Below, one piece after another: positions 2,710 to 48,667 of a stretch of 64,000 bases of DNA. Below the pieces are notes generated by a model that worked only from the letters and a program-made list of their open reading frames with translations, was not told the DNA's origin and did not search any database. Origin of the DNA: a virus. Numbering within the stretch: the first letter of the stretch is position 1; the number at the start of each line of letters is the position of its first letter. The stretch lies in UHGV virus genome UHGV-0038492; one strand, written 5' to 3'. The translations under genes and the position numbers were made by a program.

Positions 2710-5379
2710 TTAGAGAGTTTCATCGGTGTTGTCGTCTGTACCGGTATCCGTCTCGTCCGTGCCCTCAGTTGAAACTTCTTCTTCCGTTGTCGTATCGGTT
2801 TCCGTCGTTTCATCATCGGTCATGTCCAAGTCTTCATCACCGCCCAGATCGTCGCCACCAAAGTCGTTGCCCCCGCCGAAGTTATTGGCGTCTTCAGGAT
2901 TCAAATCAGCCGCTTTTGCTATCGTCTGAACTTTACCGGTCGCACGTTTTGCTAACTGAATCAGCGTCTTCGATGCTGCTGCAATTTCATCAGAAATCAT
3001 CTTGACGTTTTCACCACGTTTATCTTCATCGTAGATCAAATCAAACAGATCGGTTTCGATGCCCTGATTACGTAGCCAGTTGCGCGCGTAGAAGGTCTTA
3101 ACCATCGTCTTGAGGTCATCAGGTGACATTTCAATACCTTCGTTCTGAAGCATATTAGCAATGTCGTCCGTGACCACCAGATCTGCAAGTTTCTCGATAA
3201 ATTCATAGCGTTTATCGAAGAGATCAGCTTGAGATGCTGTTGCAGAAGTATCAGGCGGCGGCAAGGTGACCTTCATACCGTTTATAAACTTCGCCATATA
3301 CTCTGACGTTTGTTTTGTCATCTCTTCGCTAGTTACATTCGGATTCTGCTCACGGATATACTCAACGATAATACGGATGAGTTCTGCTTGCAGTTTCGGT
3401 GAAGCTTGCAGACTGTTTGTAACGTAGCGCGTAAGCGGGGTTGAGAGGATTTCCTGTTTCTTCACAATCTGTTGAGTAACCAACAGCGATTTAGAATAAA
3501 TCTGAGAAGCAAACTCCAGGTTCTCCGGGGTAAGTACAAGGTCAGGATCAACACACGCGATGTGACATGTACGGCGTAACAGGTTCTCGTCAATTTGTTG
3601 ATCAGGAACTTTATACTCCGGCGTGGTATCAGACACAGATACTTTGTGGCTGGCGTAGTAATCGTTACCCGTTACGTTAAAGGCAATCCCCGCGTTAGCC
3701 CCCATTGACCAGGCGTCGTTGATATCACCCCACATCGGCAGGCGACGATTGTAGGAATTAAGGATATCTGATTTAACTTGGTCAACAGTTTTTTGACCGT
3801 TTGCATCATCTGGTGACAGCTCAATGTCGTACTGCATGTGACGTGCCGAGTTCAGTACAGATGAGTTCATCGTTGCGAACAGCAGCGCCATCCTGACAGT
3901 AGAGATAATAAAGGAGCGCTCAGTAATAGAAACCCCGATACCGTCTTCGTTAAAGTCCGTTGCAAAATAGCACAAGTTATTAACCGGAATGTAAACCACC
4001 TGAGTATGACGTTTTGCGAGATGCCGCGCTAACAGAATACGACCGAATGTTTCGGTAATATTCATGCTGATTTCTGCGCCACCTAGTGCCTGACTTAATG
4101 CGCGTGCAAATTCGTTTTCAGCGATTTCACCACAACGTGTACTTAAACGGTTGGCGATTTCCGGGGTAATACGAGAAGTGTTCCCTAAGCCCAGATTAGA
4201 ACGGTTAATGATGCTGTCCGTCATCCCGTCGTTATTCAGGTAGTTCATAAAGTTCGCATCGCCGTACAGCGAGGAGCGAGCATTGATGAAGTTACCCATG
4301 TCATCTACGATGGTCAGATAACCGATAGGGTTACGAACGTCATCGCCAATTACCAGTGGCAGCGTTGACTCTGCGGGCAGTAAACGTTCGATGTATTCGA
4401 TTTTGTTATTCTCATCCATTGAGATAATAGGAATATCACCGTACGTTTGTGTTTTCGGTGTTGACTTATACGCCTCGTTTAAATCACCCAAGTTAATGAA
4501 CCCTTTTTCAGCAGCGTCACGCTGACGGTCATCGAAAGATTGATTAGGGTCGAACGGACTGCCACCGTTTGGTGTAGACGGCTTTTCATATGCGGCTTGC
4601 TCTAATTGCCCGTACAATCCCGTACGTGCGTTCTCATGCGCAATACGACGATACAAATCCGGCAGCATGGTAATGCGCGGGTTATCGGTAATCGTGATTT
4701 CCATCTGGAATTTATCCGAGAACATCGAATCGTGCTTACCGAAATCGATTTTCAATGTTTGTGGACCAGTAACGGCTCCGCGTAAACGGTTGAGAATTGA
4801 TTCTACACCAACTCGCTGCCCTTCTTTCGGCGCATTAATAGGCCCGAGGATACCAAGCTGTTGTTCGAAGAACGCCGTTTGAGAACGACGAATAGATTCA
4901 GTAGCGACCTTTGTATTCAGACCGAATAATTGGTCGAAGCCGGTATCCGAGATTATCATCACTGGACTTGCGCCTTTGGTTTTTAACGCATCGTAAATCC
5001 ACTGATATAATTTCTTAGGTAGCTGACGAATGTTATCGTGATAATCACGGGTCGGTGTCAGTAGCGCGTTACGCAGATCAATGGGGATGTCCGCGAAGTT
5101 GTCGTAAATCAACGTCGTGTTGATTAAGTCTTTTGTTGATAGCAGGCTCGAAGTTGCAATAGTAACGATTGTTTCGAGTTCAGGTAACGCATCAAAGATA
5201 CGTTCCGCATTTTTGATAGTACGAATACGTGAACTCGCAATTGCCGTGAGTTCTTGACGTGTTGGCGTAGAACCACCCTCGCTACGCGTACCGCGTTGTT
5301 GCTGAGGTGCTGGGCCCGTAGTTTTACGAAGAATTGCAGCTACGGCGGGGTCGCCCGTTAATTTACTAATATCGTCCAT
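2710..5379 (-). CDS. large hypothetical protein with strongly acidic C-terminal tail (possible virion protein)
   Basis: 889-aa ORF; last ~55 residues almost entirely D/E/T/G; no P-loop seen; a virion/portal-like role is speculation only. Confidence 0.8.
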   Translation of the reverse strand: MDDISKLTGDPAVAAILRKTTGPAPQQQRGTRSEGGSTPTRQELTAIASSRIRTIKNAERIFDALPELETIVTIATSSLLSTKDLINTTLIYDNFADIPIDLRNALLTPTRDYHDNIRQLPKKLYQWIYDALKTKGASPVMIISDTGFDQLFGLNTKVATESIRRSQTAFFEQQLGILGPINAPKEGQRVGVESILNRLRGAVTGPQTLKIDFGKHDSMFSDKFQMEITITDNPRITMLPDLYRRIAHENARTGLYGQLEQAAYEKPSTPNGGSPFDPNQSFDDRQRDAAEKGFINLGDLNEAYKSTPKTQTYGDIPIISMDENNKIEYIERLLPAESTLPLVIGDDVRNPIGYLTIVDDMGNFINARSSLYGDANFMNYLNNDGMTDSIINRSNLGLGNTSRITPEIANRLSTRCGEIAENEFARALSQALGGAEISMNITETFGRILLARHLAKRHTQVVYIPVNNLCYFATDFNEDGIGVSITERSFIISTVRMALLFATMNSSVLNSARHMQYDIELSPDDANGQKTVDQVKSDILNSYNRRLPMWGDINDAWSMGANAGIAFNVTGNDYYASHKVSVSDTTPEYKVPDQQIDENLLRRTCHIACVDPDLVLTPENLEFASQIYSKSLLVTQQIVKKQEILSTPLTRYVTNSLQASPKLQAELIRIIVEYIREQNPNVTSEEMTKQTSEYMAKFINGMKVTLPPPDTSATASQADLFDKRYEFIEKLADLVVTDDIANMLQNEGIEMSPDDLKTMVKTFYARNWLRNQGIETDLFDLIYDEDKRGENVKMISDEIAAASKTLIQLAKRATGKVQTIAKAADLNPEDANNFGGGNDFGGDDLGGDEDLDMTDDETTETDTTTEEEVSTEGTDETDTGTDDNTDETL

Positions 5380-5390
5380 TGGGGTCTCCG

Positions 5391-7574
5391 ATGCAGAGAT
5401 TTAACATATTTCGTGAACAGAACATCGCGTTGGCGAAATCACTGATTATTAAATCAGAATCAATCGCACAACAGATGAATCTGGCAATAACCGAGAACGG
5501 CGGTTTCGTTTCCGATAACCGAAGTACGTGGCGATACTACCTGCATTTAGCAGGACAACGTCACGAATGGGATAAGCCCATTTACATAACGTCGCTCGAC
5601 ACGCAAGAGCAGATAGAATTAACGACAGCCAACCTGTCCCGTCATAAAAAGACCTCAAACGTATTTCGTTCGAACGGCGAGTACATTGAGGAGCTGATCA
5701 GAACGTATCCTGACTACGCGATTTATATCCGGGGTGTGTTTAATCCGGTGGATATAAACTACGCCATCCGTGTGGCTGACTGCTCTATCCTCTATTACGA
5801 CAGTTCATTAGTGGAGTCGCAAGAGACGTCGCTGATGTCGAGATTGGAAGACAGAATAAGGGCAGCTCACGTTCGCTATATGTCAGAAGGGTGGAAAGTT
5901 CACAACGATGCGTTCGTGTTAGCATTCTACTGTATTCTGTATCCGCAGCTACCCGGCATTATCGGCTATATCCGTTCTTCTTTACAGCATACCACGGAAA
6001 CACATTCTTTTTACGTGACCGAGTTCTTAGCATCACACCAAGAACTTCACGAGTTTATGCCTTATCTGACCCAGAAACAGAAATTCATTCTGTATCGGAA
6101 TATTCGTTACTGGGAGCGTAATTCAGGGAAAGAGGAGATTTTCGACTGGCAGATTGATGCGCTACTGACAGGTTGGGGGATGCCTGCGGTCGGGTATAAT
6201 GTTGCGCAGCAGATACACGAACCGAAGGATGATGACGATTCCACGTTAACACCGTTACCGATTGGTTATCAGCAATCGCTTAACTATACGGAAAAGGATT
6301 CTGGTCGAGACCTTGACATTGTAACGACGACGGACATTATCCAGAAGGAAGTCGCGTTAGCGTACAATAACCCGGCGTACGAACCGGAGTATCAAGAAGA
6401 CTTAGATACCCGTTTAAGTTTAACGCAATACCCTAACCTAAAAACCAAACTCATTGAAGTTACAGCAGTCGATCCAGAAGCGATTGAGCGCTTCGAGTAT
6501 CTGCATAACCTCTTTAACGAATGGGTACATCTCGTCGCGAAAGGGAAATACAACATTTACCACGAGATTCTTAACCCAACAAACGGGGATACCTTAAAGC
6601 TTAGCTCAAAAGAGTTATTGGCGCTGTTCTTGTACGCGGCGTATAAAGGGTATTCTGACGTTGCGTTAGAAGAGATTCCTGTGTTCAACGTATTCGGGGT
6701 GTTAATCAAACGCTGGGTTCCATTCGATGAAATGGAACAACATTTAATCCCGAGCTGGGAAAACCGTTTCGATGCGTTGATTAACTATTATACCGATACG
6801 CACACAGAAGTCGTCGGAACGATTCTTAGTGCTGATGAACTTTACGACACGGTTAATGAAATCATTACCCAGAAACGCCGTCGTTGGCGTTATAGCCAAA
6901 ACCGTCGGAAGATTCCTGACCGCGCTGCGGGCTTGATGCTGTTTAACTACCATTATCGTGATTATCGTTGCGATTTAAAACTGAACTACCGTAACTACGA
7001 TGAGTTCTTTAAAACGTTTGGGTTAGACTATACGTTGGTTTCGGCGGAGACGTGGCAAGACATTGCTATTGATGCGTTTAACACCGCAACTAACCTGGAA
7101 ACCCGCGCAACGATTTCACAGTCTGAGATTCAGCGTGCGATGGTACGACTGATGACGAAGCTGTCATCCTACACCGTACATTTTGCTGCACGAATGGGGT
7201 CAGATTCTTACGACGTTATGGACCCGCTCTGTCCTATCTTAGGGGATATCCCTATGAGTGGGGAGGGGACAATTACAATTATTGAACCCCTCTTAGGCGT
7301 ACAGCAAGTTACGCGTCACCAGTATATGTCCACCGACACTGTGTTACCGGCAGCGCCTGTTATTAAAGAACTGTCGATGCCACAGCACATCAAACTCAGG
7401 ATGAACATTTACATGGGTATCCGAGTGAAAGTAACACAGCAGGTTGTGGTGGATATTAACGAGCCGACTACCGGGGTTGTTAAAGTGAAATCTTCGCTTG
7501 ACGATTGGACGTTAAACGAACAGGTGAAAATTAACGATCTGGACGGCTTCACGCTTGACCAGCTACCTAAGTGA
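5391..7574 (+). CDS. hypothetical protein
   Basis: 727-aa ORF from ATG 5391 (track start 5379 is a TTG); diverges from the 889-aa gene with no intergenic space; no Walker motif seen. Confidence 0.75.
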   Translation: MQRFNIFREQNIALAKSLIIKSESIAQQMNLAITENGGFVSDNRSTWRYYLHLAGQRHEWDKPIYITSLDTQEQIELTTANLSRHKKTSNVFRSNGEYIEELIRTYPDYAIYIRGVFNPVDINYAIRVADCSILYYDSSLVESQETSLMSRLEDRIRAAHVRYMSEGWKVHNDAFVLAFYCILYPQLPGIIGYIRSSLQHTTETHSFYVTEFLASHQELHEFMPYLTQKQKFILYRNIRYWERNSGKEEIFDWQIDALLTGWGMPAVGYNVAQQIHEPKDDDDSTLTPLPIGYQQSLNYTEKDSGRDLDIVTTTDIIQKEVALAYNNPAYEPEYQEDLDTRLSLTQYPNLKTKLIEVTAVDPEAIERFEYLHNLFNEWVHLVAKGKYNIYHEILNPTNGDTLKLSSKELLALFLYAAYKGYSDVALEEIPVFNVFGVLIKRWVPFDEMEQHLIPSWENRFDALINYYTDTHTEVVGTILSADELYDTVNEIITQKRRRWRYSQNRRKIPDRAAGLMLFNYHYRDYRCDLKLNYRNYDEFFKTFGLDYTLVSAETWQDIAIDAFNTATNLETRATISQSEIQRAMVRLMTKLSSYTVHFAARMGSDSYDVMDPLCPILGDIPMSGEGTITIIEPLLGVQQVTRHQYMSTDTVLPAAPVIKELSMPQHIKLRMNIYMGIRVKVTQQVVVDINEPTTGVVKVKSSLDDWTLNEQVKINDLDGFTLDQLPK

Positions 7575-7581
7575 GAAAACC

Positions 7582-8109
7582 ATGGCATATCGCGTCGACT
7601 TAACGAAAACTCCGAAACAAATTCTGGTAGATCGTATTAACTACGTTTTCGGGGTATCCTATACCACTGATAACATCGATTTTAACGATAAAGGTGTGCA
7701 ACCACTGACGAAAGACGAAGCCCGTCGTTACGGACTGGAATCGAAAGTGGCCGCTGACTTTAAAAACGGTGTTACAGGGAACCAGGAATTCATCTTAACC
7801 CGTGTTGACCTGGCAACGTTCTTAGCTGACGAACCGGTTACGGTACCGAAAGGCGAAGTAACCAGCAGCCAAGAACTGGCAGACTATATCGTTGCCCAGA
7901 CCGGTATTGATTTGACCCAAGACGACATTATGATCGAGCCTATCAGTGAGGAACTCGATTCTTATGATGTTCGCTTAGTCCCGAATCACTTATCTTTTAA
8001 AGGAACGATTCCGGTCGTATTTACTGACCCCACACCACGCACGTTGGCGTCTCTCGTGACGAAACTTGCGCTGGACGGGTTCCGCCCTGGAGAATTAATC
8101 AATGTCTAA
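7582..8109 (+). CDS. hypothetical protein, distant member of the fibre-associated small-protein family
   Basis: ATG at 7582; contains the motif ELADYIVAQTGIDLTQDDI resembling the xNLxPxDL motif of ORFs at 27860, 38024, 47326 and 48188. Confidence 0.6.
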   Translation: MAYRVDLTKTPKQILVDRINYVFGVSYTTDNIDFNDKGVQPLTKDEARRYGLESKVAADFKNGVTGNQEFILTRVDLATFLADEPVTVPKGEVTSSQELADYIVAQTGIDLTQDDIMIEPISEELDSYDVRLVPNHLSFKGTIPVVFTDPTPRTLASLVTKLALDGFRPGELINV

Positions 8110-8989
8110 TGTCAAAGTTTACGACGGTAAACTCTCGACGGTAACACTTAATGCGATGCGTCTGGCTACCGCATTAATTACCGGTGCCGATGTGCAATAC
8201 CCACAGAAGTCCACACTGAATGAGTTTTATAAACTCATGCAAACCCCAGTGCCGGACGGTAAAGCACGTCCCCATTTGCAGTACATGGCGATTGGTAACC
8301 GTGGCCATATGGTCGACACATCAGACGTTGTTGCTGATGTTGTTCCTGTAGCTAAAGAACCTATCGCGTCCGGGATGTTTTCACGCGTTCCGTTTGTCCT
8401 GCGTACTAAAGACAACGATTTGTCTGATGAACAGCGTAAGAACTACGCTTTCCGTACTCTGGAAACCATCAACAAACGTGAGTATTGGGCGTACTACTTA
8501 AAACGCATTGACATGCGTGCAGTAAAAACTACCGACTACGACATTAAGCGTGAGAACGGTGTTGAAACTGTAGAAGACTTTGTCTATACGGATACTGAAC
8601 TGAACCCGGTACCGAAAGTGTTGCCGGACTACGATTACGATGATGACGGTACCGTTGCAATTCCTGACGGCCGTTATGTGGAATCAGGTGCAGACCTGGT
8701 TATTCCGTGGACGGACTTTGACGTTCAGGAGTACATGAACGTGACCAGCATTATGCGCGGTAGCCCTCGTAGTTCGATTATCTCTGAACTGGCACTGTGC
8801 TCTGGCTTAGACCAGGTAACGTCCGGTGACTCTGCTACAGGTTCGAAGTTCAGCTACACTGAAGCTATCGGTGTACAAGCCCTGTATTACATTTCGATGT
8901 TTACTAACCTGGCGCAGACGAACGATAAACTGTCACTGACAATCCGTATCGGTCAACCTGCACCGTTCTTCTTAGGGACAGCGAATTAA
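8102..8989 (+). CDS. hypothetical protein
   Basis: 295-aa ORF, GGAGAA RBS, start overlaps upstream stop. Confidence 0.7.
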   Translation: MSNVKVYDGKLSTVTLNAMRLATALITGADVQYPQKSTLNEFYKLMQTPVPDGKARPHLQYMAIGNRGHMVDTSDVVADVVPVAKEPIASGMFSRVPFVLRTKDNDLSDEQRKNYAFRTLETINKREYWAYYLKRIDMRAVKTTDYDIKRENGVETVEDFVYTDTELNPVPKVLPDYDYDDDGTVAIPDGRYVESGADLVIPWTDFDVQEYMNVTSIMRGSPRSSIISELALCSGLDQVTSGDSATGSKFSYTEAIGVQALYYISMFTNLAQTNDKLSLTIRIGQPAPFFLGTAN

Positions 8990-9633
8990 TGTTGATTCCT
9001 GAGCCGAGACTTCCCGATAAAATGGTCAGGATCGCGGCGATAGACCCCGGTACGAGCCATCTCGGGATGGCGGTGCTGGATTGGGAATATGGCAGCGACC
9101 AAGCCGAAGTGGTGTGGGCTGATACCATGCACGTATTAGACCCAACACATCCAAGTGCGTTTGCAGAGTGTGTCGGTAAACGCGACGATCGCTTAGTAAA
9201 ACTCGAAGCGTGCTACCGTGAGTTTCTTCGGATTGCGCGTCCGACGTTTGTTGCAACAGAAACGCCGTTTATGCGGCGGGCAAAACTCTCCGCGTATGAG
9301 TCTGGTGTAGAGTTACAGCTGATGTTAAGACGGGCGTTATGGGACGTGTTTCCAGAGAAAGTGTTACACGGGTTCAATCCGATTATTGTAAAATCATTCG
9401 TCGGTGTGGAAGCGAAAGGAACGGACAAAACAGATATGTTTCGTGCCGTAACGAAGTTGTATCGCGACCACGCGTTGTTTGACATTACAACGTTGGATGA
9501 GCACAGTATCGATGCCGTGGCGGTGGGGAATATCTTTGTCAGGGTAAACCTGTTAAACTTGAATAGTCTCCTACCGCCAAAACAAAAGTCTGCTAAGACA
9601 GCAAAACGGCGGAGAAGACGTCGGAGGAAATAG
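8989..9633 (+). CDS. RuvC/RNase-H-fold protein (putative Holliday-junction resolvase) with poly-Arg C-terminal tail
   Basis: N-terminal RIAAIDPGTSHLGMAVLD resembles the first catalytic strand of RuvC-family resolvases; C-terminus KRRRRRRRK. Confidence 0.5.
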   Translation: MLIPEPRLPDKMVRIAAIDPGTSHLGMAVLDWEYGSDQAEVVWADTMHVLDPTHPSAFAECVGKRDDRLVKLEACYREFLRIARPTFVATETPFMRRAKLSAYESGVELQLMLRRALWDVFPEKVLHGFNPIIVKSFVGVEAKGTDKTDMFRAVTKLYRDHALFDITTLDEHSIDAVAVGNIFVRVNLLNLNSLLPPKQKSAKTAKRRRRRRRK

Positions 9634-9635
9634 CG

Positions 9636-10214
9636 ATGTCGCAACCAACACAAGACGTGTCAGCCGCAATTCTTGACATTCTTATCCAAGCAGGGAACAG
9701 AAAGTTAAGTAAAGAGCAGTCCGAAGAACTGTCTAAGATTCTCAAAGACAACTTCGGTGATGATGTCTCTGTAGACGTAACGCGGTCGGGTACAAAGATT
9801 CTGTCGGAGCTACGCCCAACGCTTCTTGAGAACATTGGAAAGATGGCGGAAAACTTTCAGCAGCAAGCCACAAATGCTGTAGAGAGTTTAGGTGACGAAG
9901 TAAGCAAAGAAACGATGTTGACACTGTGGCCGAAACTTGCCGGTGCACAGAAGTTCATTATTGTTCTGCTTGCACTCGCCACTGTGGTCGTGACAGGCTT
10001 CTTAGCGTACGACACGCATCAGAACTATCCAACAGACAGTATGGAAGTGTTGTTTGTATCCTTACTTCCGCTGTTCGGACTGGTAGTATTTGCAACGTGG
10101 CCGATTAAAACGTTGGCTTACAAGTCGTTGGAGATTGCTACCAAAGTTGTCGAGAAGAAACTTGAGAAATCAGGTCAGGTCGTCGCGAAGACGGAAACAA
10201 AGACAACGAAATAA
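9636..10214 (+). CDS. membrane protein (two predicted TM helices)
   Basis: GGAGG RBS; hydrophobic segments FIIVLLALATVVVTGFLAY and LFVSLLPLFGLVVFATW; followed by terminator. Confidence 0.65.
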   Translation: MSQPTQDVSAAILDILIQAGNRKLSKEQSEELSKILKDNFGDDVSVDVTRSGTKILSELRPTLLENIGKMAENFQQQATNAVESLGDEVSKETMLTLWPKLAGAQKFIIVLLALATVVVTGFLAYDTHQNYPTDSMEVLFVSLLPLFGLVVFATWPIKTLAYKSLEIATKVVEKKLEKSGQVVAKTETKTTK

Positions 10215-10220
10215 AACCAA

Positions 10221-10255
10221 CCTCTACCTTCGGGTAGAGGTTTTCTTCTTTTTAT
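10221..10255 (+). terminator. intrinsic terminator (UUCG tetraloop)
   Basis: CCTCTACC-TTCG-GGTAGAGG followed by T-rich tract. Confidence 0.75.
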
Positions 10256-10302
10256 TTTACAATTTTTGATCATACTGTGAGACTTGAACAAGGAGACTTA
10301 TC

Positions 10303-10956
10303 ATGGAACCACTACGTTTAATGACCAGAACGCTACTGATTCCTATCTGGGAATTGAAGCTTGCCCCATTGTCTGCCTCTAATGGGGAGGTCATTGATTT
10401 TATTAAAGACGAAGAATTTGTGTTGACGGCTTTCCAGGAGACGCTGCATCGTTATTATAATGCAGTGCCTTTATCTGGCGGATTAGATTGCCCTGGTGTA
10501 GAAGGGAGTACGTCTGCGTTAATCGCAGAGTATTTAGAACAGAAAGGAATCGGGGTTGGGAAAGGCCGGGTTTATGTGGACGCCGATAAACTGAGGAGTT
10601 ACCAGATTGAGCTGACGTTTCAGATAAGAAAATTACTTACCCGCTACGGTCTTTTCTCGATTAACTGTAAGGTTGATGACGTACGGATGTTAGACCACGG
10701 TTTTACCACTGTCCTCAAAACCTGTCGCGGTAAAAGATTCGTACAGTTTGCGTGGTGGGTACCAGTATTGCGTGGTGAGAGAAAAACGGTGGAGGGGTTG
10801 TACGGCTGGGCGCTATGGAGCGAAGTTCCAGTAAATAAACTCGATGCAGTTATTCCAAAGCACCGAAACGTTCCGCTTAGCAGTTTATTTACTTCCGGCG
10901 AGAACACTACGTGGGCTGAATTCGTTAATAACGTTATGTCAATTGGGGAACAATAA
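10303..10956 (+). CDS. hypothetical protein
   Basis: 217-aa ORF, AAGGAG RBS. Confidence 0.65.
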   Translation: MEPLRLMTRTLLIPIWELKLAPLSASNGEVIDFIKDEEFVLTAFQETLHRYYNAVPLSGGLDCPGVEGSTSALIAEYLEQKGIGVGKGRVYVDADKLRSYQIELTFQIRKLLTRYGLFSINCKVDDVRMLDHGFTTVLKTCRGKRFVQFAWWVPVLRGERKTVEGLYGWALWSEVPVNKLDAVIPKHRNVPLSSLFTSGENTTWAEFVNNVMSIGEQ

Positions 10957-11432
10957 TGCAGCAATTAGATATTACCGAAGACAAAATCTCCGCTAAATTT
11001 CCACAATTACGTGAATACATCAAAGACTTAAATTCGATACGCGAAACACCGGTCCGCATTACCTTAGCGGTAGAAGATGACATTACACACGGTATTGCGA
11101 TTTGGGAACCGGGCAATCTTATCTATTTGGTGGTGGCGGAAGGTTCTCGACGTTTCGGTGTGGGTTCGTTCTTATTGCAGTACGTTCAGTTGAATTCCGA
11201 TCGTCAAATGGTGACGTGTCGTGTCCACCCTTCGAACATTGACGGCCTGTGTTTCTTTTCGAAAAAAGGCTACCAGATTGACCGTTGGTATATCGCCAGC
11301 GACTCTCGTCGGTATTTTCGTATGACGAACGGTAACGTTGTTTCGTCATACGCCCCGCCGGAAGAAGGATATTTGGTGGATTTTATCGAAAACACGCCCA
11401 TCTTTCTCTCTGTTGCGGATAAAATTTATTAA
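10956..11432 (+). CDS. hypothetical protein, possible GNAT-like fold
   Basis: 158-aa ORF; segment GIAIWEPGNLIYLVVAEGSRRFGVGSFLL loosely resembles a GNAT acetyl-CoA binding core. Confidence 0.45.
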   Translation: MQQLDITEDKISAKFPQLREYIKDLNSIRETPVRITLAVEDDITHGIAIWEPGNLIYLVVAEGSRRFGVGSFLLQYVQLNSDRQMVTCRVHPSNIDGLCFFSKKGYQIDRWYIASDSRRYFRMTNGNVVSSYAPPEEGYLVDFIENTPIFLSVADKIY

Positions 11433-11448
11433 CCGTTGAGAGTCTAAA

Positions 11449-11925
11449 ATGATACGTGTCGAATATGAGACGCGGTGCTTAGAAGACAATCGAGCAAAAG
11501 CATTACGTTGTGTTGAAATCGTCCCCGAGCACGAACTGGATATCCAAGCTGGTAAGGTTCGGGGCGTTCCGGTTAAGATCGTACAACATAGCCATTGTTC
11601 GCAATATAAAGAGAAAGCTGTCCCAGTAGTACGTTCCAGTAAACGAGAAGACTTTTCAGAACTCCGTAAGTGTTTTCAACGACACTACCGTCGGAGTAAA
11701 TGGAAAGTGTTGGTATTAATGTTAGTCGACGATTTCATTAAAGACCTGGTTTGGGAAGAAGTGCTTAAAGAGCGTGGTTTTCAACCCAAACCGTTCTCGT
11801 ATCACTGGGAACGTTTCAAAAAGAAATACCACGAGTCATTGCGTTGGTCTCCGAACACCCGGAATATGATGCCACGTTTGGAATCAATGCCTTGGCTTCG
11901 TGTTTATCTCGATGAGGTAAACTGA
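11449..11925 (+). CDS. hypothetical protein
   Basis: 158-aa ORF with ATG start. Confidence 0.6.
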   Translation: MIRVEYETRCLEDNRAKALRCVEIVPEHELDIQAGKVRGVPVKIVQHSHCSQYKEKAVPVVRSSKREDFSELRKCFQRHYRRSKWKVLVLMLVDDFIKDLVWEEVLKERGFQPKPFSYHWERFKKKYHESLRWSPNTRNMMPRLESMPWLRVYLDEVN

Positions 11926-13030: not shown

Positions 13031-13059
13031 CATTATCGACGGTCTTTATGGAGGTGACC

Positions 13060-13614
13060 ATGAAAGACTATAGAATTGCAATCATCGGGTCTCGAGAAAC
13101 ACCGGAAGACGTTATGCAGGAAATGTTAGACACGTTACGGGAAGGGTTTCGAATCTTACGAAAGAAAGGCTACACGATTACCACCCGTTCTGGCGGGTGT
13201 TATAAAGGCCCAGACCAGCTTCAGTTTATGATAGCACGTACCGAGGACGTTAAGAGCGTTTGTTATCTGCCGGATGAAAAGAAAATGTGGTTAGGGAAAA
13301 TACACCCTAAGGTAGAGTTTCGTTATATCCCACAAGACGTTCAGTACCGAGCGATAGTTGCTTCACTTCACCCAAATCCAGATAAGCTCTCACCGATTGC
13401 CTGGGCGCTACACGGCCGTAATCTGAATATCATCGCAGGTGACTGCTTAGACGAACCGGTAGACGCAGTCTATTACTTTAGCGACCACGACAAACACGGA
13501 AACGCAAAAGGTGGTACTGCGATGGGTGTAAAATACGCGAAGTCAATCGACGTTCCTTGTTACTACCATACCGTCGATCGGGATAAGTGGTTGGAAAGTC
13601 TTCGTTTATTATGA
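13060..13614 (+). CDS. SLOG/DprA-like Rossmann-fold protein (tentative)
   Basis: GGAGG RBS 5 nt upstream of ATG at 13060; IAIIGSR followed by RSGGCYKG resembles the glycine-rich strand-loop of DprA/LOG-type Rossmann domains. Confidence 0.45.
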   Translation: MKDYRIAIIGSRETPEDVMQEMLDTLREGFRILRKKGYTITTRSGGCYKGPDQLQFMIARTEDVKSVCYLPDEKKMWLGKIHPKVEFRYIPQDVQYRAIVASLHPNPDKLSPIAWALHGRNLNIIAGDCLDEPVDAVYYFSDHDKHGNAKGGTAMGVKYAKSIDVPCYYHTVDRDKWLESLRLL

Positions 13615-13737: not shown

Positions 13738-14871
13738 ATGTCAACGTTAGATAGCGACTTAGAAGTGCTTTGTGACGATTACGACCGACTCGTAGCGTTA
13801 GAATCCATTGGAGTAAAAGACAATTATCCGGCTATCGTTGCTATCCGTAAACGTTGGCTTTTGGATGATGTGGTTGTTGCGTCAGAGTCTGCGGCCATGA
13901 TGCACCGTGCACAGTTTTTGTCAGACACGGAACCTGATAAAGGGATAGGCAAAGCGGCGGCACGACTCACCGGACGTGCGGTTCGTGGCGTAAGTCGGGT
14001 AGCAGGACGTGCTGCCAGTGCAGGTGCAAAAGCATCGGCGAACTTCGCAGGTAAACATTCCAAACAACTTGCTTTACGTTTTGTGGATTTTGCTGAGGCT
14101 GCGGGTAAAGAAGTCATTAAGGAATTAAAAGAAGCGACGTCTAAAGCGACGACCTTAGAGCGCAAACTGCAAAAGTTAAATGCACGTCTAAATTTAATCG
14201 GTGACAAAGACACCTTAAAACCGGTTGACTGCGACACGGGAAGCTGGACGACCAAAGTTTGTTTAGAAGACAAACCTAACGTAAAAGCGTGTATTGAGTT
14301 CAGTAAGAACCTGAACGCAATGGATGCGATGGTCAACGAGTATACCGTTAAAACGCGCACCATTATCGGTAAGAGCAAGAAAGTTACTGAGAGTGGCTTG
14401 GAGAAAGTAGGTCGCTCAACGAACTGGGCGATTAAACGTAGTGCAGGGCTGTTCGGTATTATCGATCCGTTTAAAACGGTGAAAGCGTATCCGTGGCCAG
14501 GTAACGTGGTGGTCGTTGAACACGACAACGGTAAGATTGAGTGGGCGATTGCCCGTGATGGTGATTTTGGCCACTCAATCAAATCTCTGAACTTACACGA
14601 AATCGGTTCGGCTCTCGAAGCCGTTGAAAAAATTATCCGAGCTTTACGTCAGCGTGGTACGAAGCGACGTAGCGTTGGTTATACCGGTATTTACGATGAA
14701 GTTCAGCGAATGAAAAAAGAGCTGAAGTCGTTAGACGGTCGTGAGTTACGCGATGCTACCGTTCGGTATAAGAACGCACTGCGTTTAGAAGATGCGTTTA
14801 CTACCTCGTTAGTGCGTGTTGCGGAAGGCTTACTGGAATGGTGCAGGTTGTCGCTGATTGAGGTTAAATAA
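13738..14871 (+). CDS. hypothetical protein
   Basis: 377-aa ORF; Ala/Arg-rich low-complexity segment near residue 80. Confidence 0.7.
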   Translation: MSTLDSDLEVLCDDYDRLVALESIGVKDNYPAIVAIRKRWLLDDVVVASESAAMMHRAQFLSDTEPDKGIGKAAARLTGRAVRGVSRVAGRAASAGAKASANFAGKHSKQLALRFVDFAEAAGKEVIKELKEATSKATTLERKLQKLNARLNLIGDKDTLKPVDCDTGSWTTKVCLEDKPNVKACIEFSKNLNAMDAMVNEYTVKTRTIIGKSKKVTESGLEKVGRSTNWAIKRSAGLFGIIDPFKTVKAYPWPGNVVVVEHDNGKIEWAIARDGDFGHSIKSLNLHEIGSALEAVEKIIRALRQRGTKRRSVGYTGIYDEVQRMKKELKSLDGRELRDATVRYKNALRLEDAFTTSLVRVAEGLLEWCRLSLIEVK

Positions 14872-15338
14872 TGCGTATTACTATTATTCTCAAACCCGAC
14901 AGTAAATACGGAAAGTTATACGGCGACCAGGTACTCAAACTGCACAACATGTTGTTCGCAGAAGAGAAAGTGCGTATTAGTCAGTTAACTGGACGTGACA
15001 CGTTCAACCCCATCGAACGTTTAGAAGAGATTTGGCCTCAAGACTATCTCTGTGCGTGTGCGGTGGGTGACAACGAACAGCTTCTGGGATTTATGACGTT
15101 CTCATTGGGTTCTTGCTCAAAAGACACGTTTGTTTACATCGGGAATTACTATGTGATTCCTGAAGCACGTTCTCAAGGGGTAGGGCGTGCGCTTATGGAC
15201 AAAGTCCGTGAATACGGAAAGTCCAAAGGTTGTGGTTGGATGAGTCTGGATGTGTTAGACAACAACGTTAAAGCTATCTCCTTGTATGAGAAAATGGGAT
15301 TCCGTACCGAATGCAGGGAAATGATAAAGGAAATCTAA
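14871..15338 (+). CDS. GNAT-family N-acetyltransferase
   Basis: YVIPEARSQGVGRALMDKVREYGKSKG matches the GNAT motif A (Q/RxxGxG/A acetyl-CoA loop); ATG overlaps upstream stop. Confidence 0.65.
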   Translation: MRITIILKPDSKYGKLYGDQVLKLHNMLFAEEKVRISQLTGRDTFNPIERLEEIWPQDYLCACAVGDNEQLLGFMTFSLGSCSKDTFVYIGNYYVIPEARSQGVGRALMDKVREYGKSKGCGWMSLDVLDNNVKAISLYEKMGFRTECREMIKEI

Positions 15339-25263: not shown

Positions 25264-25742
25264 TTCAATTTTCTGTTGACGCAGAAAGACTGGCGTCGTT
25301 TAAAGAACGTGCTCAGTCTGCAACTAAAAACGGCTATATCGAGAAAGGTGTTCGTGATACCTGTAAACTAATTAACGACCATCCGCACCTGGCGACAATG
25401 TGGAGCTGTGAAGGTCACGGTATGTATTCTAAGTCACCTGGAAATCTGCATATCGTTTTTGCAACAGACGCTATTGGAAGTCAGATTCCAATGCAGGTTA
25501 TGTCCGAACTTGCAAAATCGGATTTACCTAATTTTTGGAATCTTAGTTTGTGTCGTCTTTATATACCAGATTCATACACGGATTTGGTATATCTTGAACC
25601 TGACTATGGGCTAAACACCGACGACACGTCTTACTGGGCTTGGAAAATCGGATACATGTGCTTGATTAATCGGCCAGCATTAATTGAGACACGTCAAGCT
25701 CTTTACAAAGCATTTCACACAGTATTAGTTGAGAATAAATAA
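25260..25742 (+). CDS. hypothetical protein
   Basis: ATGA overlap; 160 aa. Confidence 0.6.
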   Translation: MIQFSVDAERLASFKERAQSATKNGYIEKGVRDTCKLINDHPHLATMWSCEGHGMYSKSPGNLHIVFATDAIGSQIPMQVMSELAKSDLPNFWNLSLCRLYIPDSYTDLVYLEPDYGLNTDDTSYWAWKIGYMCLINRPALIETRQALYKAFHTVLVENK

Positions 25743-26434
25743 TGGCTACCAAACAAAAGAAACCTCGTAACAAAAAGTATAACCCGAAAGCGGCTGCTAA
25801 CCGTACTGCGCACACCATTGCTGAAAATGCGCTAAACCGTATTACTTTCGTCGGTAGCTCTATTCGTCCTATTGGTCCGTACGCAGGCCGTGGTTTCCAG
25901 TTCACAACGTCACCGCGTATGCGCATGGCAGCGACTGATATGTTAATCGGTGGTTTGTTTGACGAACCACGTAACTGGAAACTCTGGGTTGCGCATCTGT
26001 ACGAAACGGATAATGGTGTACAAGCAGAAACCGTCGTGGCAACGCTTGACGACTACACGTTAAGTGACTTCTGTCAACACGGCGACAAAATCATCAAGTC
26101 GTTACGTGAGACAGAAGAAAACTACTTCGGTTACGCTTTCGTTGCTGCACCTAACGAACGCTATGATTTCGACCAGGGAGAAGAACGCTTACTGGAAAAC
26201 TTCATGCATTCTGGACTGTTAGACAAATCCTTACACTTACCTGAAGAAGAACTGATGGTTTCGCGTAAGGATATGGTAACGTTGCTGTTAGCCGACCGTG
26301 GTCGTTTTGATATCACCGAGCCACATGTACGTAAGGTACAGAAACTCGTGGATAAGGTAGACGAAACTGACCTGGACACTAATGAAGTCGCAACGCGTAT
26401 TCAAAGTGTAGTAAACCAGATTGAGGATTACTAA
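25742..26434 (+). CDS. hypothetical protein
   Basis: 230-aa ORF, basic N-terminus, acidic C-terminal half. Confidence 0.65.
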   Translation: MATKQKKPRNKKYNPKAAANRTAHTIAENALNRITFVGSSIRPIGPYAGRGFQFTTSPRMRMAATDMLIGGLFDEPRNWKLWVAHLYETDNGVQAETVVATLDDYTLSDFCQHGDKIIKSLRETEENYFGYAFVAAPNERYDFDQGEERLLENFMHSGLLDKSLHLPEEELMVSRKDMVTLLLADRGRFDITEPHVRKVQKLVDKVDETDLDTNEVATRIQSVVNQIEDY

Positions 26435-48187: not shown

Positions 48188-48667
48188 ATGGCCAATCAAG
48201 AAACTATCTTCGACCTTATTAAAAAGGCTAACCCGGACGCTGAGTTCGACACCACCAAAGTCACACTGGGTGAACCGGTTGTGACCACCGGTACTTACAA
48301 TACCGAAATTACGGTTGCGTCGATTAAGAATCTCGGTTATGTTAATAAGCAAACGTTCCAGTATAACCGCATTGACGCAGGTTTGTATTTCCTGAACGTA
48401 TTACCGAAATTGTTGGTAGAATCTGCAACGACTACCGCTGACTTACTGCCCGTCATTAACGAGCAGTACAGCCTAACCCTTACAGAAGACGACGTGTGGG
48501 TAGAACAGGTTGGTGAGTTACCGTTAGACGGTAGCGCAATCGAACACGGTATTTTCTTCCGTCCTGAGTGTCTGACCTGGGTTGGTGGTTTTACAGTGCG
48601 TGTTGCGCGTAAACCGGCTGACGCCACACCGCCAAAGACGGCGTCTCGCGCTAAAAAGAAAAAATAA
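48188..48667 (+). CDS. hypothetical protein, same family
   Basis: 159 aa; ADLLPVINEQYSLTLTEDDV motif; Lys-rich C-terminus; terminator downstream. Confidence 0.6.
   Translation: MANQETIFDLIKKANPDAEFDTTKVTLGEPVVTTGTYNTEITVASIKNLGYVNKQTFQYNRIDAGLYFLNVLPKLLVESATTTADLLPVINEQYSLTLTEDDVWVEQVGELPLDGSAIEHGIFFRPECLTWVGGFTVRVARKPADATPPKTASRAKKKK

Follow-up and report, generated by a model that had tools for sequence, protein, structure and literature searches.

[quoted passage not shown]

Genomic Organization of the Locus

[quoted passage not shown] Fourth in a series of five tightly coupled genes (positions 5379 to 10214), it belongs to an operon that otherwise consists of virion-protein genes. The elements of this region are the following:

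5379..8989, + strand, three upstream genes, homologs of SPN3US gp82, gp83, and gp84 (PHROGs 3222, 2935, and 3315)
8989..9633, + strand, coding sequence of the RuvC-like Holliday junction resolvase, 214 aa (open reading frame listing, PHROG 159, tblastn)
9623..9627, + strand, GGAGG Shine-Dalgarno sequence of the downstream gene, inside arginine codons 212-213 (sequence reading)
9636..10214, + strand, downstream gene, whose 192-aa product has two hydrophobic stretches that likely span the membrane (match to PHROG 8722, function unknown, E 1.5e-73)
10219..10242, no strand assigned, hairpin with a 10-bp stem and flanking T-runs on both strands (terminator scan)

In the open reading frame listing, the three upstream genes overlap or abut each other and the RuvC-like gene, which indicates a late structural operon. 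The TAA stop codon of the preceding gene shares bases with the ATG of the RuvC-like gene (TAATG). At the other end, the stop codon (9631-9633) is separated from the next ATG (9636) by a gap of 2 nt, and the gene for the 192-aa protein, the last one of the operon, appears to be translationally coupled to the RuvC-like gene. The hairpin at 10219-10242 looks like an intrinsic terminator that closes the operon. Sigma-70 promoters around the operon are found at background level (13 sites versus 12.8 expected), as would be expected for a phage with its own RNA polymerases. An opposite-strand open reading frame (9213..9653, 146 aa) and other small overlapping frames were taken to be non-coding, as shadows of the conserved gene on the + strand.

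The GGAGG motif lies 8 nt from the ATG of the downstream gene. Its position within the codons of the basic tail, as proposed in the initial annotation of this locus, holds on inspection, and the overlap is retained in relatives. The string CGG AGG AAR, which includes GGAGG, also occurs in SPN3US, phiEaH2, and Wellington, bringing the count to four out of seven genomes at the DNA level. Phages CR5, Caitlin, and pVp-JHP1101 have Shine-Dalgarno-like purine runs. Across the seven genomes compared, the start of the following gene lies between -4 and +5 nt relative to the RuvC stop codon, so the Shine-Dalgarno sequence must fall within the last RuvC codons. The locus is thus a clean example of one DNA stretch that doubles as a protein tail and as the ribosome binding site of the next gene.

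The 214-aa product matches the PHROG 159 profile (‘RuvC-like Holliday junction resolvase’; E 9.1e-39, 134 bits) over its full length, with residues 1-210 aligned on profile positions 76-287 of 330. The Pfam scan gave no match of the protein to the RuvC profile PF02075, even at E<=10; this profile was matched by five out of 40 homologs, with a best E-value of 1.8e-7. The score against the NCBIfam RuvC model NF000711 is 15.7 bits and remains below the cutoff of 163. Being below both the Pfam and NCBIfam thresholds, the protein belongs to a divergent phage branch of the superfamily and is not a canonical bacterial RuvC; its substrate could therefore differ. Since these two scans gave no usable match, the protein was identified from PHROGs, the fold prediction, and residue conservation. 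Several phage records already carry a RuvC-like annotation for orthologs.

Fold and Catalytic Residues

The AlphaFold2 model of the protein (pLDDT 87.9, pTM 0.85) has an RNase H-like alpha/beta fold with RuvC topology. The top 11 Foldseek matches are all bacterial RuvC (best E-value 4e-10), and bona fide bacterial RuvC enzymes, aligned over their full length, far outrank the other structural matches. The fold searches also recovered the poxvirus A22-type resolvase, chloroplast MOC1, and mitochondrial Ydc2/Cce1, all of which have the RuvC fold and act independently of RuvAB. The RuvC/RNase-H likeness first noticed at the N-terminus (IAAIDPGTSHLGMAVLD, residues 15-31) is hence backed by PHROG 159, by the fold prediction that had been suggested as a check, and by the conserved catalytic residues. 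The latter are located in three motifs:

9043..9045, + strand, codon of D19, the first catalytic Asp, in strand beta-1 (motif IDPG, invariant in 40 homologs)
9259..9270, + strand, codons of E91-T92-P93-F94, the catalytic Glu (beta-4) and the aromatic residue three positions on (all invariant)
9496..9513, + strand, codons of D170-E171-H172-S173-I174-D175, where the last helix begins, including catalytic residues three (H172) and four (D175)

In an alignment of 40 homologs with 39-94% identity, residues D19, E91, F94, D170, E171, H172, and D175 are invariant, as are T92 and P93. Residues R65, R68, G139, V140, T145, and K147 are invariant as well and specific to the family. The DPG motif that includes D19 lines up with the one conserved at the N-terminus of the Thermus thermophilus and Deinococcus radiodurans RuvC proteins. 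In the profile alignment, the ETPF motif corresponds to the EEQF motif of T. thermophilus RuvC. F94 is aligned with Phe73 of that enzyme, a highlighted conserved aromatic position (F73 in T. thermophilus RuvC, F69 in E. coli RuvC) (PMC3864405). DEHSID is matched in the alignment by the NHAAD motif of D. radiodurans RuvC, an enzyme in which substitution of Asp7, Glu67, His139, or Asp142 abolishes activity (PMC9228767).

The four metal-binding catalytic positions (Asp, Glu, His/Asp, Asp) are occupied by D19, E91, H172, and D175. Four acidic catalytic residues had been anticipated for this protein; Asp19, Glu91, and Asp175 are present as such, while the third position is taken by His172. The resulting set Asp-Glu-His-Asp is like that of the Thermus and Deinococcus enzymes, and D170 and E171 adjoin H172. 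No catalytic Asp or Glu, the loss of which would have spoken against a RuvC-like enzyme, is missing from the alignment. Membership of the RuvC resolvase superfamily (RNase H-like fold, RuvC branch) is strongly supported, and the gene, from an SPN3US-like, phiKZ-related jumbo phage, codes for a junction-cutting enzyme of the RuvC type, of an ordinary kind that has been annotated in phages before. Bacterial RuvC proteins (PF02075; E. coli, T. thermophilus, P. aeruginosa, D. radiodurans) share about 20% identity with it. Compared to these proteins, it has an extra N-terminal segment of 13 residues, an insertion after beta-3, a net-acidic core, and a C-terminal linker followed by the polybasic tail.

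Composition of the Polybasic Tail

The C-terminal part of the protein comprises the following elements:

9556..9579, + strand, conserved linker NLNSLLPP, residues 190-197, after the last helix (homolog alignment, pLDDT, DSSP)
9580..9630, + strand, disordered polybasic tail K198-K214, KQKSAKTAKRRRRRRRK (low pLDDT, K/R composition)
9607-9627, + strand, run of seven arginines (R7) within the tail (sequence reading)

Direct translation of 8989..9633 confirms the terminal KRRRRRRRK given in the initial annotation. It corresponds to residues 206-214, encoded by AAA CGG CGG AGA AGA CGT CGG AGG AAA and followed by TAG. DSSP assigns neither helix nor strand after residue 188. In the linker, L191 is nearly invariant and L194 invariant among homologs. 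The mean pLDDT is about 80 for residues 191-200, and the values for the last two blocks of the protein are 58 and 51.

Among the approximately 19,700 residues of the 75 long open reading frames of the window, about 2.6e-5 R7 runs are expected by chance, and the tail is the sole case of a K/R run of at least five residues; the arginine run is thus not due to chance. It is also the longest uninterrupted arginine run among the close homologs, except for a 96%-identical protein (P0001) with a run of eight. The tail extension has a net charge between +8 and +15 across the tail-bearing proteins. In the present protein, a tail of +12 shifts the whole from net acidic (about -4, the charge of the core) to net basic (about +8). 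There is no strong sign that the tail makes up for a core of lower basicity, and we do not build on this idea: the median core charge differs by only two units (-5 in tail-bearing and -3 in tail-less proteins), and the comparison is phylogenetically non-independent.

Six out of seven arginines of the R7 run are encoded by CGG, AGA, or AGG, compared to 21% in the window overall (p about 5e-4). A role of these rare codons as a tail-specific stalling device was ruled out, as non-preferred codons of this kind are also common in the body of the gene (8 out of 14 arginines). No phage tRNA genes were found within the 64-kb window.

Distribution of the Gene and the Tail

Matches were found by tblastn in 182 phage records. 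The proteins of SPN3US-type phages have 81-82% identity and share both the basic tail and the embedded GGAGG. The family counts 1149 cluster representatives at E<1e-3 and is conserved across phiKZ-like jumbo phages. Orthologs include SPN3US gene 85, phiKZ ORF140, PhiPA3 gp159, EL gp108, and 201phi2-1 gp225 (record notes; PMC5105663, Table S1). Synteny is conserved too, with the gene located downstream of a phiKZ gp139-like virion protein gene in SPN3US, PhiPA3, Noxifer, RSL2, pVp-JHP1101, Aphrodite1, phiEaH2, Wellington, Caitlin, and CR5. Conservation and synteny together characterize it as a conserved gene of the phiKZ group. Homologs from Pseudomonas phages have 27-38% identity and occupy this same place. 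Scrambled proteins of phage SPFM (P0056-P0060) and truncated sequences (P0002, P0021, P0043, P0045, and P0052) were left out of the alignments as annotation or assembly artefacts.

All full-length close homologs, to identities as low as about 40%, carry a basic tail. Its basic character is kept, despite differing codons and sequences, to about 35% identity and also in separate gains. In a tree built without the tail, 62 out of 69 tail-bearing proteins group together in a single pure clade, and about five further gains are found elsewhere on the tree. Within this 62-member clade, the last 15 residues are composed of 68% K/R, 1.2% D/E, and 11% G. A comparison of C-termini shows no basic tail in the homologs of PhiPA3, EL, RSL2, Noxifer, Moabite, LPKP23, and Aphrodite1, which end about 15-25 residues past the DEHxxD motif; the tail is thus dispensable for the core activity. 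The C-terminal 25 residues (linker NLNSLLPP and tail) are a lineage-specific addition. The tail is real, marks the branch of SPN3US, Erwinia, and Cronobacter phages, and seems to have arisen more than once.

Discussion

We propose that the protein is probably a structure-specific endonuclease of the RuvC superfamily that debranches replicated DNA before packaging, with a tail that adds non-specific DNA affinity. By homology, a homodimer would bind four-way junctions and probably other branched DNA. Asp19, Glu91, His172, and Asp175 would hold divalent metal ions, and each subunit would nick one strand near the crossover. Such nicking would remove branches from replicated or recombined phage DNA and make it packageable. 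Expression would presumably occur late, at the start of packaging, in line with the place of the gene among virion-protein genes. The disordered polycationic tail most likely serves as a non-specific electrostatic DNA tether, raising DNA affinity and broadening the range of branched substrates, while its last two or three codons double as Shine-Dalgarno sequence for the membrane-protein gene downstream. Nucleic-acid affinity and virion packaging had originally been suggested as possible roles of the tail, and the former remains the best reading.

A precedent is offered by the RuvC of phage bIL67, in which added positive surface charge widens binding to forks and other branches, interpreted by its authors as clearance of branches that would block packaging (PMC3864405). 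The extra charge of bIL67 RuvC (PDB 4ktw) is found on the structured helix alpha-D and on loops lining the DNA cleft, whereas the present protein (12-14% identity) has an acidic core and carries its charge on the disordered C-terminal tail. In contrast to bacteria, jumbo phages have a RuvC-like resolvase without a RuvB partner (PMC7824862). Searches of the literature found no biochemical or genetic data on any member of this phage subfamily, and no experimental work on the SPN3US or phiKZ ortholog was found in the literature on jumbo phages and Chimalliviridae. A core-genome paper (PMC10299810) and a phage transposon-mutagenesis preprint do not mention the RuvC-like protein under the names sought.

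The absent RuvAB partner (PMC7824862) could also be read as a sign that the protein, despite its RuvC fold, mainly does something other than resolve Holliday junctions, acting for example on host forks or the host chromosome, or on other phage DNA structures. Its position below the Pfam and NCBIfam thresholds, its N-terminal extension, and its family-specific invariant residues would suit such a role, and bIL67 RuvC cuts replication forks as well (PMC3864405). We nevertheless consider this unlikely, given the full-length structural match to bona fide bacterial RuvC and the invariant F94 at the conserved aromatic position; broad branch cleavage, moreover, fits within the preferred explanation. 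There is similarly little probability that the tail is functionless in the protein and a mere by-product of the purine-rich ribosome binding and translational coupling region of the downstream gene. The obligatory position of the Shine-Dalgarno sequence in all seven genomes, the DNA-level conservation of CGG AGG AAR in four of them, and the codon bias of the R7 run point in this direction. A Shine-Dalgarno sequence, however, requires two codons and not 10-17, and purine-rich coding would be no less prone to give Glu and Gly than Lys and Arg. The K/R-rich tails are nearly devoid of D/E (about 1% of the last 15 residues), indicating that the charge itself is selected, beyond the embedded ribosome binding site. 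The basic character, in addition, survives codon changes and separate gains, and rare arginine codons typify the whole gene rather than the tail alone.

That the tail acts as a packaging or hitch-hiking signal, taking the nuclease into the capsid together with the DNA, is the least probable of the readings and has very little chance of being correct. A polycation would stick to DNA during packaging, and the gene sits among virion-protein genes, but published virion data for the orthologs argue against it. The SPN3US virion mass-spectrometry list (Table S4; 83 proteins; GeLC-MS) concerns the ortholog and not the present phage. It includes gp81-gp84 and continues with gp91, and gp85, although 81% identical and having its own basic tail (ending in KRKGRRRRK), is missing from all four samples and was thus not detected in purified virions. 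PhiPA3 and Noxifer give a similar picture, as the neighbours are annotated as virion proteins and the RuvC-like gene is not. Likewise, ORF139 of phiKZ is flagged as a virion protein and ORF140 is not (PMC5105663, Table S1). A virion-packaging role, to be checked by proteomics according to the initial annotation, is consequently disfavoured.

The tail could instead be a localization device of nucleus-forming phages, helping the enzyme to get into the phage nucleus or to remain there, for instance by attraction to the acidic chimallin shell or by retention on nuclear DNA in an NLS-like manner. Its apparent repeated gain in the family would fit a selectable advantage in either localization or affinity. 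The layout PPKxKKPK...KRRRRRRK, which we take to resemble a bipartite NLS, counts in favor of this device. Asesino, the closest relative at the nucleotide level, is a nucleus-forming phage (PMC11724907), and the chimallin shell is described as negatively charged (PMC13282480). Still, we regard such a device as doubtful. Nuclear import of the phiKZ type reportedly proceeds via surface patches recognized by Imp1/PicA and not via terminal signals (PMC13282480), and homologs from other nucleus-forming phages (PhiPA3, EL, and others) are tail-less. A general import tag can be rejected, as no other long open reading frame of the 64-kb window has a comparable K/R terminus. The DprA-like protein of the window has none either, though its RAY homolog is nuclear (PMC10299810). 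A more specific version, in which the tail and the NLNSLLPP linker direct the resolvase to the acidic chimallin shell, or to DNA where capsids dock, or retain it there, is equally speculative and improbable. If true, it would represent a linear NLS-like localization element in a bacterial virus.

The window, which came without prior annotation, holds the resolvase that was to be expected, and its active site is intact; what is new here is a small, undescribed embellishment, the tail, on a known kind of enzyme. Should this tail, probably a DNA-affinity element, change the location of the enzyme or the range of its substrates, it would reveal how a RuvAB-less resolvase finds branches in the phage nucleus, and it would give an easy handle on the debranching of DNA ahead of headful packaging in SPN3US, a genetically tractable phage.

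A divergent RuvC in an SPN3US-like jumbo phage

The 214-aa RuvC-like protein analyzed here (the resolvase) is encoded as follows:

8989-9633, + strand, resolvase CDS (214 aa, ORF listing)

Its ATG start shares bases with the TAA stop of the upstream gene (TAATG). The initial annotation had called the protein RuvC-like from its N-terminus (IAAIDPGTSHLGMAVLD, residues 15-31), which is borne out by a profile match, the predicted fold and the conserved catalytic residues. A Pfam scan of the resolvase gave no useful match, with PF02075 being reached by only five out of 40 homologs, and the NCBIfam RuvC model scored 15.7 bits versus a cutoff of 163. The full-length protein matches phrog_159 ‘RuvC-like Holliday junction resolvase’ (PHROGs, E 9e-39), and searching the PDB by sequence alone found T. 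thermophilus RuvC (E ~4e-3). The AlphaFold2 model, with 40 homologs as input, is confident (pLDDT 87.9, pTM 0.85), and all 11 best Foldseek matches in the PDB are bacterial RuvC (best E 4e-10).

Seven residues (D19, E91, F94, D170, E171, H172, and D175) are invariant across a 40-sequence alignment of homologs 39-94% identical to the query. In profile and pairwise alignments, the DPG motif with D19 coincides with its N-terminal counterpart in RuvC, ETPF (E91, F94) lines up with EEQF of T. thermophilus RuvC, and DEHSID (H172, D175) with NHAAD of D. radiodurans RuvC. The active site of the latter comprises Asp7, Glu67, His139, and Asp142, and substitution of any one of them abolishes activity (PMC9228767). 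The conserved aromatic position is a Phe three residues past the catalytic Glu (F69 in E. coli, F73 in T. thermophilus) (PMC3864405). No catalytic residue is thus missing on alignment, but the four acidic residues initially expected are three, the third catalytic residue being a His, as in Thermus and Deinococcus RuvC. Judged from its sequence, the resolvase is a divergent branch of RuvC. Family-specific additions compared to bacterial RuvC occur at residues 1-13, 49-68, and 137-147 (8989-9027, 9133-9192, and 9397-9429): an N-terminal segment modelled with confidence (MLIPEPRLPDKMV), an insertion carrying invariant R65 and R68, and a loop (GVEAKGTDK) in which G139, V140, T145, and K147 are invariant.

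The window derives from an SPN3US-like phage, one of the phiKZ-related jumbo phages. Using tblastn, the resolvase was found in 182 phage records. The versions from Salmonella phage SPN3US and relatives are 80-82% identical, those from jumbo phages of Erwinia and Cronobacter 65-78%, and those from jumbo phages of Pseudomonas, Vibrio, Klebsiella, Serratia, and Ralstonia 24-38%. Despite proteins about 81% identical to SPN3US, the region 7500-11500 has no close nucleotide relative in a collection of 50,697 phage records, the sole match being Erwinia phage Asesino (74% identity, 42% of the 4-kb query). Within the SPN3US-like group, it probably represents a species or genus of its own. Orthologs are SPN3US gene 85, phiKZ ORF140, PhiPA3 gp159, 201phi2-1 gp225, and EL gp108 (record notes; Table S1, PMC5105663), and several records (including SPLA5c, SPFM2, Kwan, Wellington, Moabite, and Noxifer) already carry a RuvC-like resolvase annotation. 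Since an exhaustive profile search moreover yielded 1149 cluster representatives at E<1e-3, the enzyme kind is known and the copy in the window is a further member. In two surveyed jumbo-phage groups, nearly all phages encode a RuvC-like resolvase but no RuvB to partner it (PMC7824862).

We found several incongruences among the collected homologs. Those of the SPFM series (P0056-P0060; Salmonella phages SPFM1, 7, 8, 9, and 20; records LR5359xx) resemble mosaics in which pieces of the resolvase are permuted, for example with the C-terminal motif first and the N-terminal motif last, which suggests that these records contain artefacts of assembly or annotation. P0002 (188 aa), P0021 (phiEaH2 G173_gp009, 191 aa), EL gp108, and Aphrodite1 gp144 start at an internal Met (query M27) and represent start-codon mis-calls, because beta-1 and the catalytic Asp19 are lost. 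P0002 originates from a Salmonella Agona assembly and is 99% identical; a genome assembly of Salmonella enterica serovar Agona holds a near-identical phage contig.

The polybasic tail and the overlapping ribosome-binding site

The C-terminus ends with KRRRRRRRK, as initially annotated (codons AAA CGG CGG AGA AGA CGT CGG AGG AAA TAG). The Arg run is not due to chance, because about 2.6e-5 R7 runs are expected across all 75 long ORFs (using the window's own amino-acid frequencies) and no other K/R run of at least five occurs in the window. The last helix of the model stops at residue 188. The mean pLDDT is ~80 over residues 191-200, and the pLDDT of 51-58 for the final 14 residues indicates predicted disorder.

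All full-length close homologs have a K/R-rich end of variable sequence (KGRRRRK, RRRRRTRG, RFKRFRRKKK, KRRRRRRRKGK), and a basic tail is also present in the homolog of Vibrio phage pVp-JHP1101 (35% identity). The homologs of PhiPA3, EL, Moabite, RSL2, LPKP23, Noxifer, and Aphrodite1 have none and end shortly past the DEHxxD helix. In a neighbour-joining tree of 205 family members, computed with the tail removed, 62 out of 69 tail-bearing proteins form one pure clade including the query. The root state is inferred to be tail-less, with about five further gains by parsimony, an approximate number given the short sequences and the neighbour-joining method. Within this clade, the segment past the last helix counts 20-36 residues with a net charge of +8 to +15, and the last 15 residues consist of 68% K+R, 11% G, and 1.2% D+E. 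The query has a core (residues 1-189) of net charge -4 and a tail of +12.

The tail codons also contain the ribosome-binding site of the next gene, as initially proposed:

9623-9627, + strand, GGAGG inside resolvase codons 212-213, 8 nt before the ATG (9636) of the next ORF

DNA sequences of seven genomes were compared, and in all of them the start of the downstream gene lies -4 to +5 nt from the RuvC stop; its Shine-Dalgarno sequence must therefore sit in the last RuvC codons. The window shares CGG AGG AAR, which contains GGAGG, with SPN3US, phiEaH2, and Wellington, and different purine-rich SD-like strings occur in CR5, Caitlin, and pVp-JHP1101, so the dual use of these codons is real and conserved. 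The tail is nevertheless probably no mere by-product of this site, which accounts for two or three codons only: purine-rich coding would be expected to produce Glu and Gly at the same rate as Lys and Arg, yet acidic residues are near-absent. As the basic character is also kept where the codons differ and where a tail was gained separately, selection acts on positive charge. The rarer Arg codons (CGG, AGA, AGG) make up six out of seven in the tail versus 21% window-wide (p ~5e-4), but are not tail-specific, since they also account for 8 out of 14 in the rest of the gene. Over the whole window (1-64000), ARAGORN detected neither tRNA nor tmRNA genes.

Genomic neighbourhood

5379-10214, + strand, operon of overlapping or abutting genes (homologs of SPN3US gp82, gp83, and gp84, resolvase, 192-aa protein)
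7555-8109 and 48188-48667, + strand, paralogous pair of small virion structural proteins (both matching PHROGs 2935 and 1037)
9636-10214, + strand, 192-aa protein (PHROG 8722, function not known), apparently translationally coupled to the resolvase
10219-10242, hairpin with a perfect 10-bp stem (AACCTCTACC ... GGTAGAGGTT) and T-runs on both strands
10956-11432, + strand, acetyltransferase-like gene (PHROG 7861)
13048-13614, + strand, DprA-like recombination mediator
14871-15338, + strand, acetyltransferase-like gene (GNAT-like by eye)

The gene order of the operon is kept across relatives, and the hairpin looks like a bidirectional intrinsic terminator ending it. Both acetyltransferase-like genes and the DprA-like gene lie directly downstream and are arranged as in SPN3US. 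The N-terminal half of the 192-aa protein is soluble, and two of its segments are hydrophobic (~residues 106-126 and 137-160); PhiPA3 gp160, encoded at the same position, carries the annotation Rz-like spanin. A large family of paralogous head proteins has been reported for SPN3US.

Possible roles of the tail

The initial annotation offered virion packaging or nucleic-acid affinity as roles of the tail. GeLC-MS of purified SPN3US particles identified 83 proteins (published data), including gp81-gp84, encoded directly upstream, without the resolvase ortholog gp85, which has its own basic tail. In phiKZ, ORF139 is flagged structural and ORF140 is not (Table S1, PMC5105663). Packaging of the resolvase is thus disfavoured, based on an 81%-identical ortholog from another phage. 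A general import tag for the phage nucleus is excluded: import does not use terminal signals but surface features read by Imp1/PicA (review, PMC13282480), the other long ORFs of the window lack a comparable basic terminus, and the DprA-like protein, whose RAY homolog is nuclear (PMC10299810), has no basic terminus. A protein-specific localisation or retention in the phage nucleus seems rather improbable. Elsewhere in the window, notably K/R-rich termini are found in only two proteins, namely the virion structural paralog at 48188-48667, with a short basic tail (SRAKKKK), and the following protein:

25742-26434, + strand, 230-aa protein (PHROG 6965, function not known) with basic N-terminus MATKQKKPRNKKYNP

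DNA affinity is a plausible role of the tail by analogy with bIL67 RuvC, in which added positive charge widens binding to forks and simple branches (PMC3864405). By homology, the resolvase would form a homodimer and nick junctions, and probably other branches, by metal-ion catalysis at D19, E91, H172, and D175. Phage junction-resolving enzymes classically clear branches that would block packaging (PMC3864405), and the location of the resolvase within a structural operon fits such a role and may reflect the timing of its action. We found no description of this tail in the searchable literature. The tail is a lineage-specific addition to a known, already annotated enzyme kind, and would most likely serve as a disordered polycation that tethers an otherwise acidic enzyme, lacking RuvAB delivery, non-specifically to DNA.
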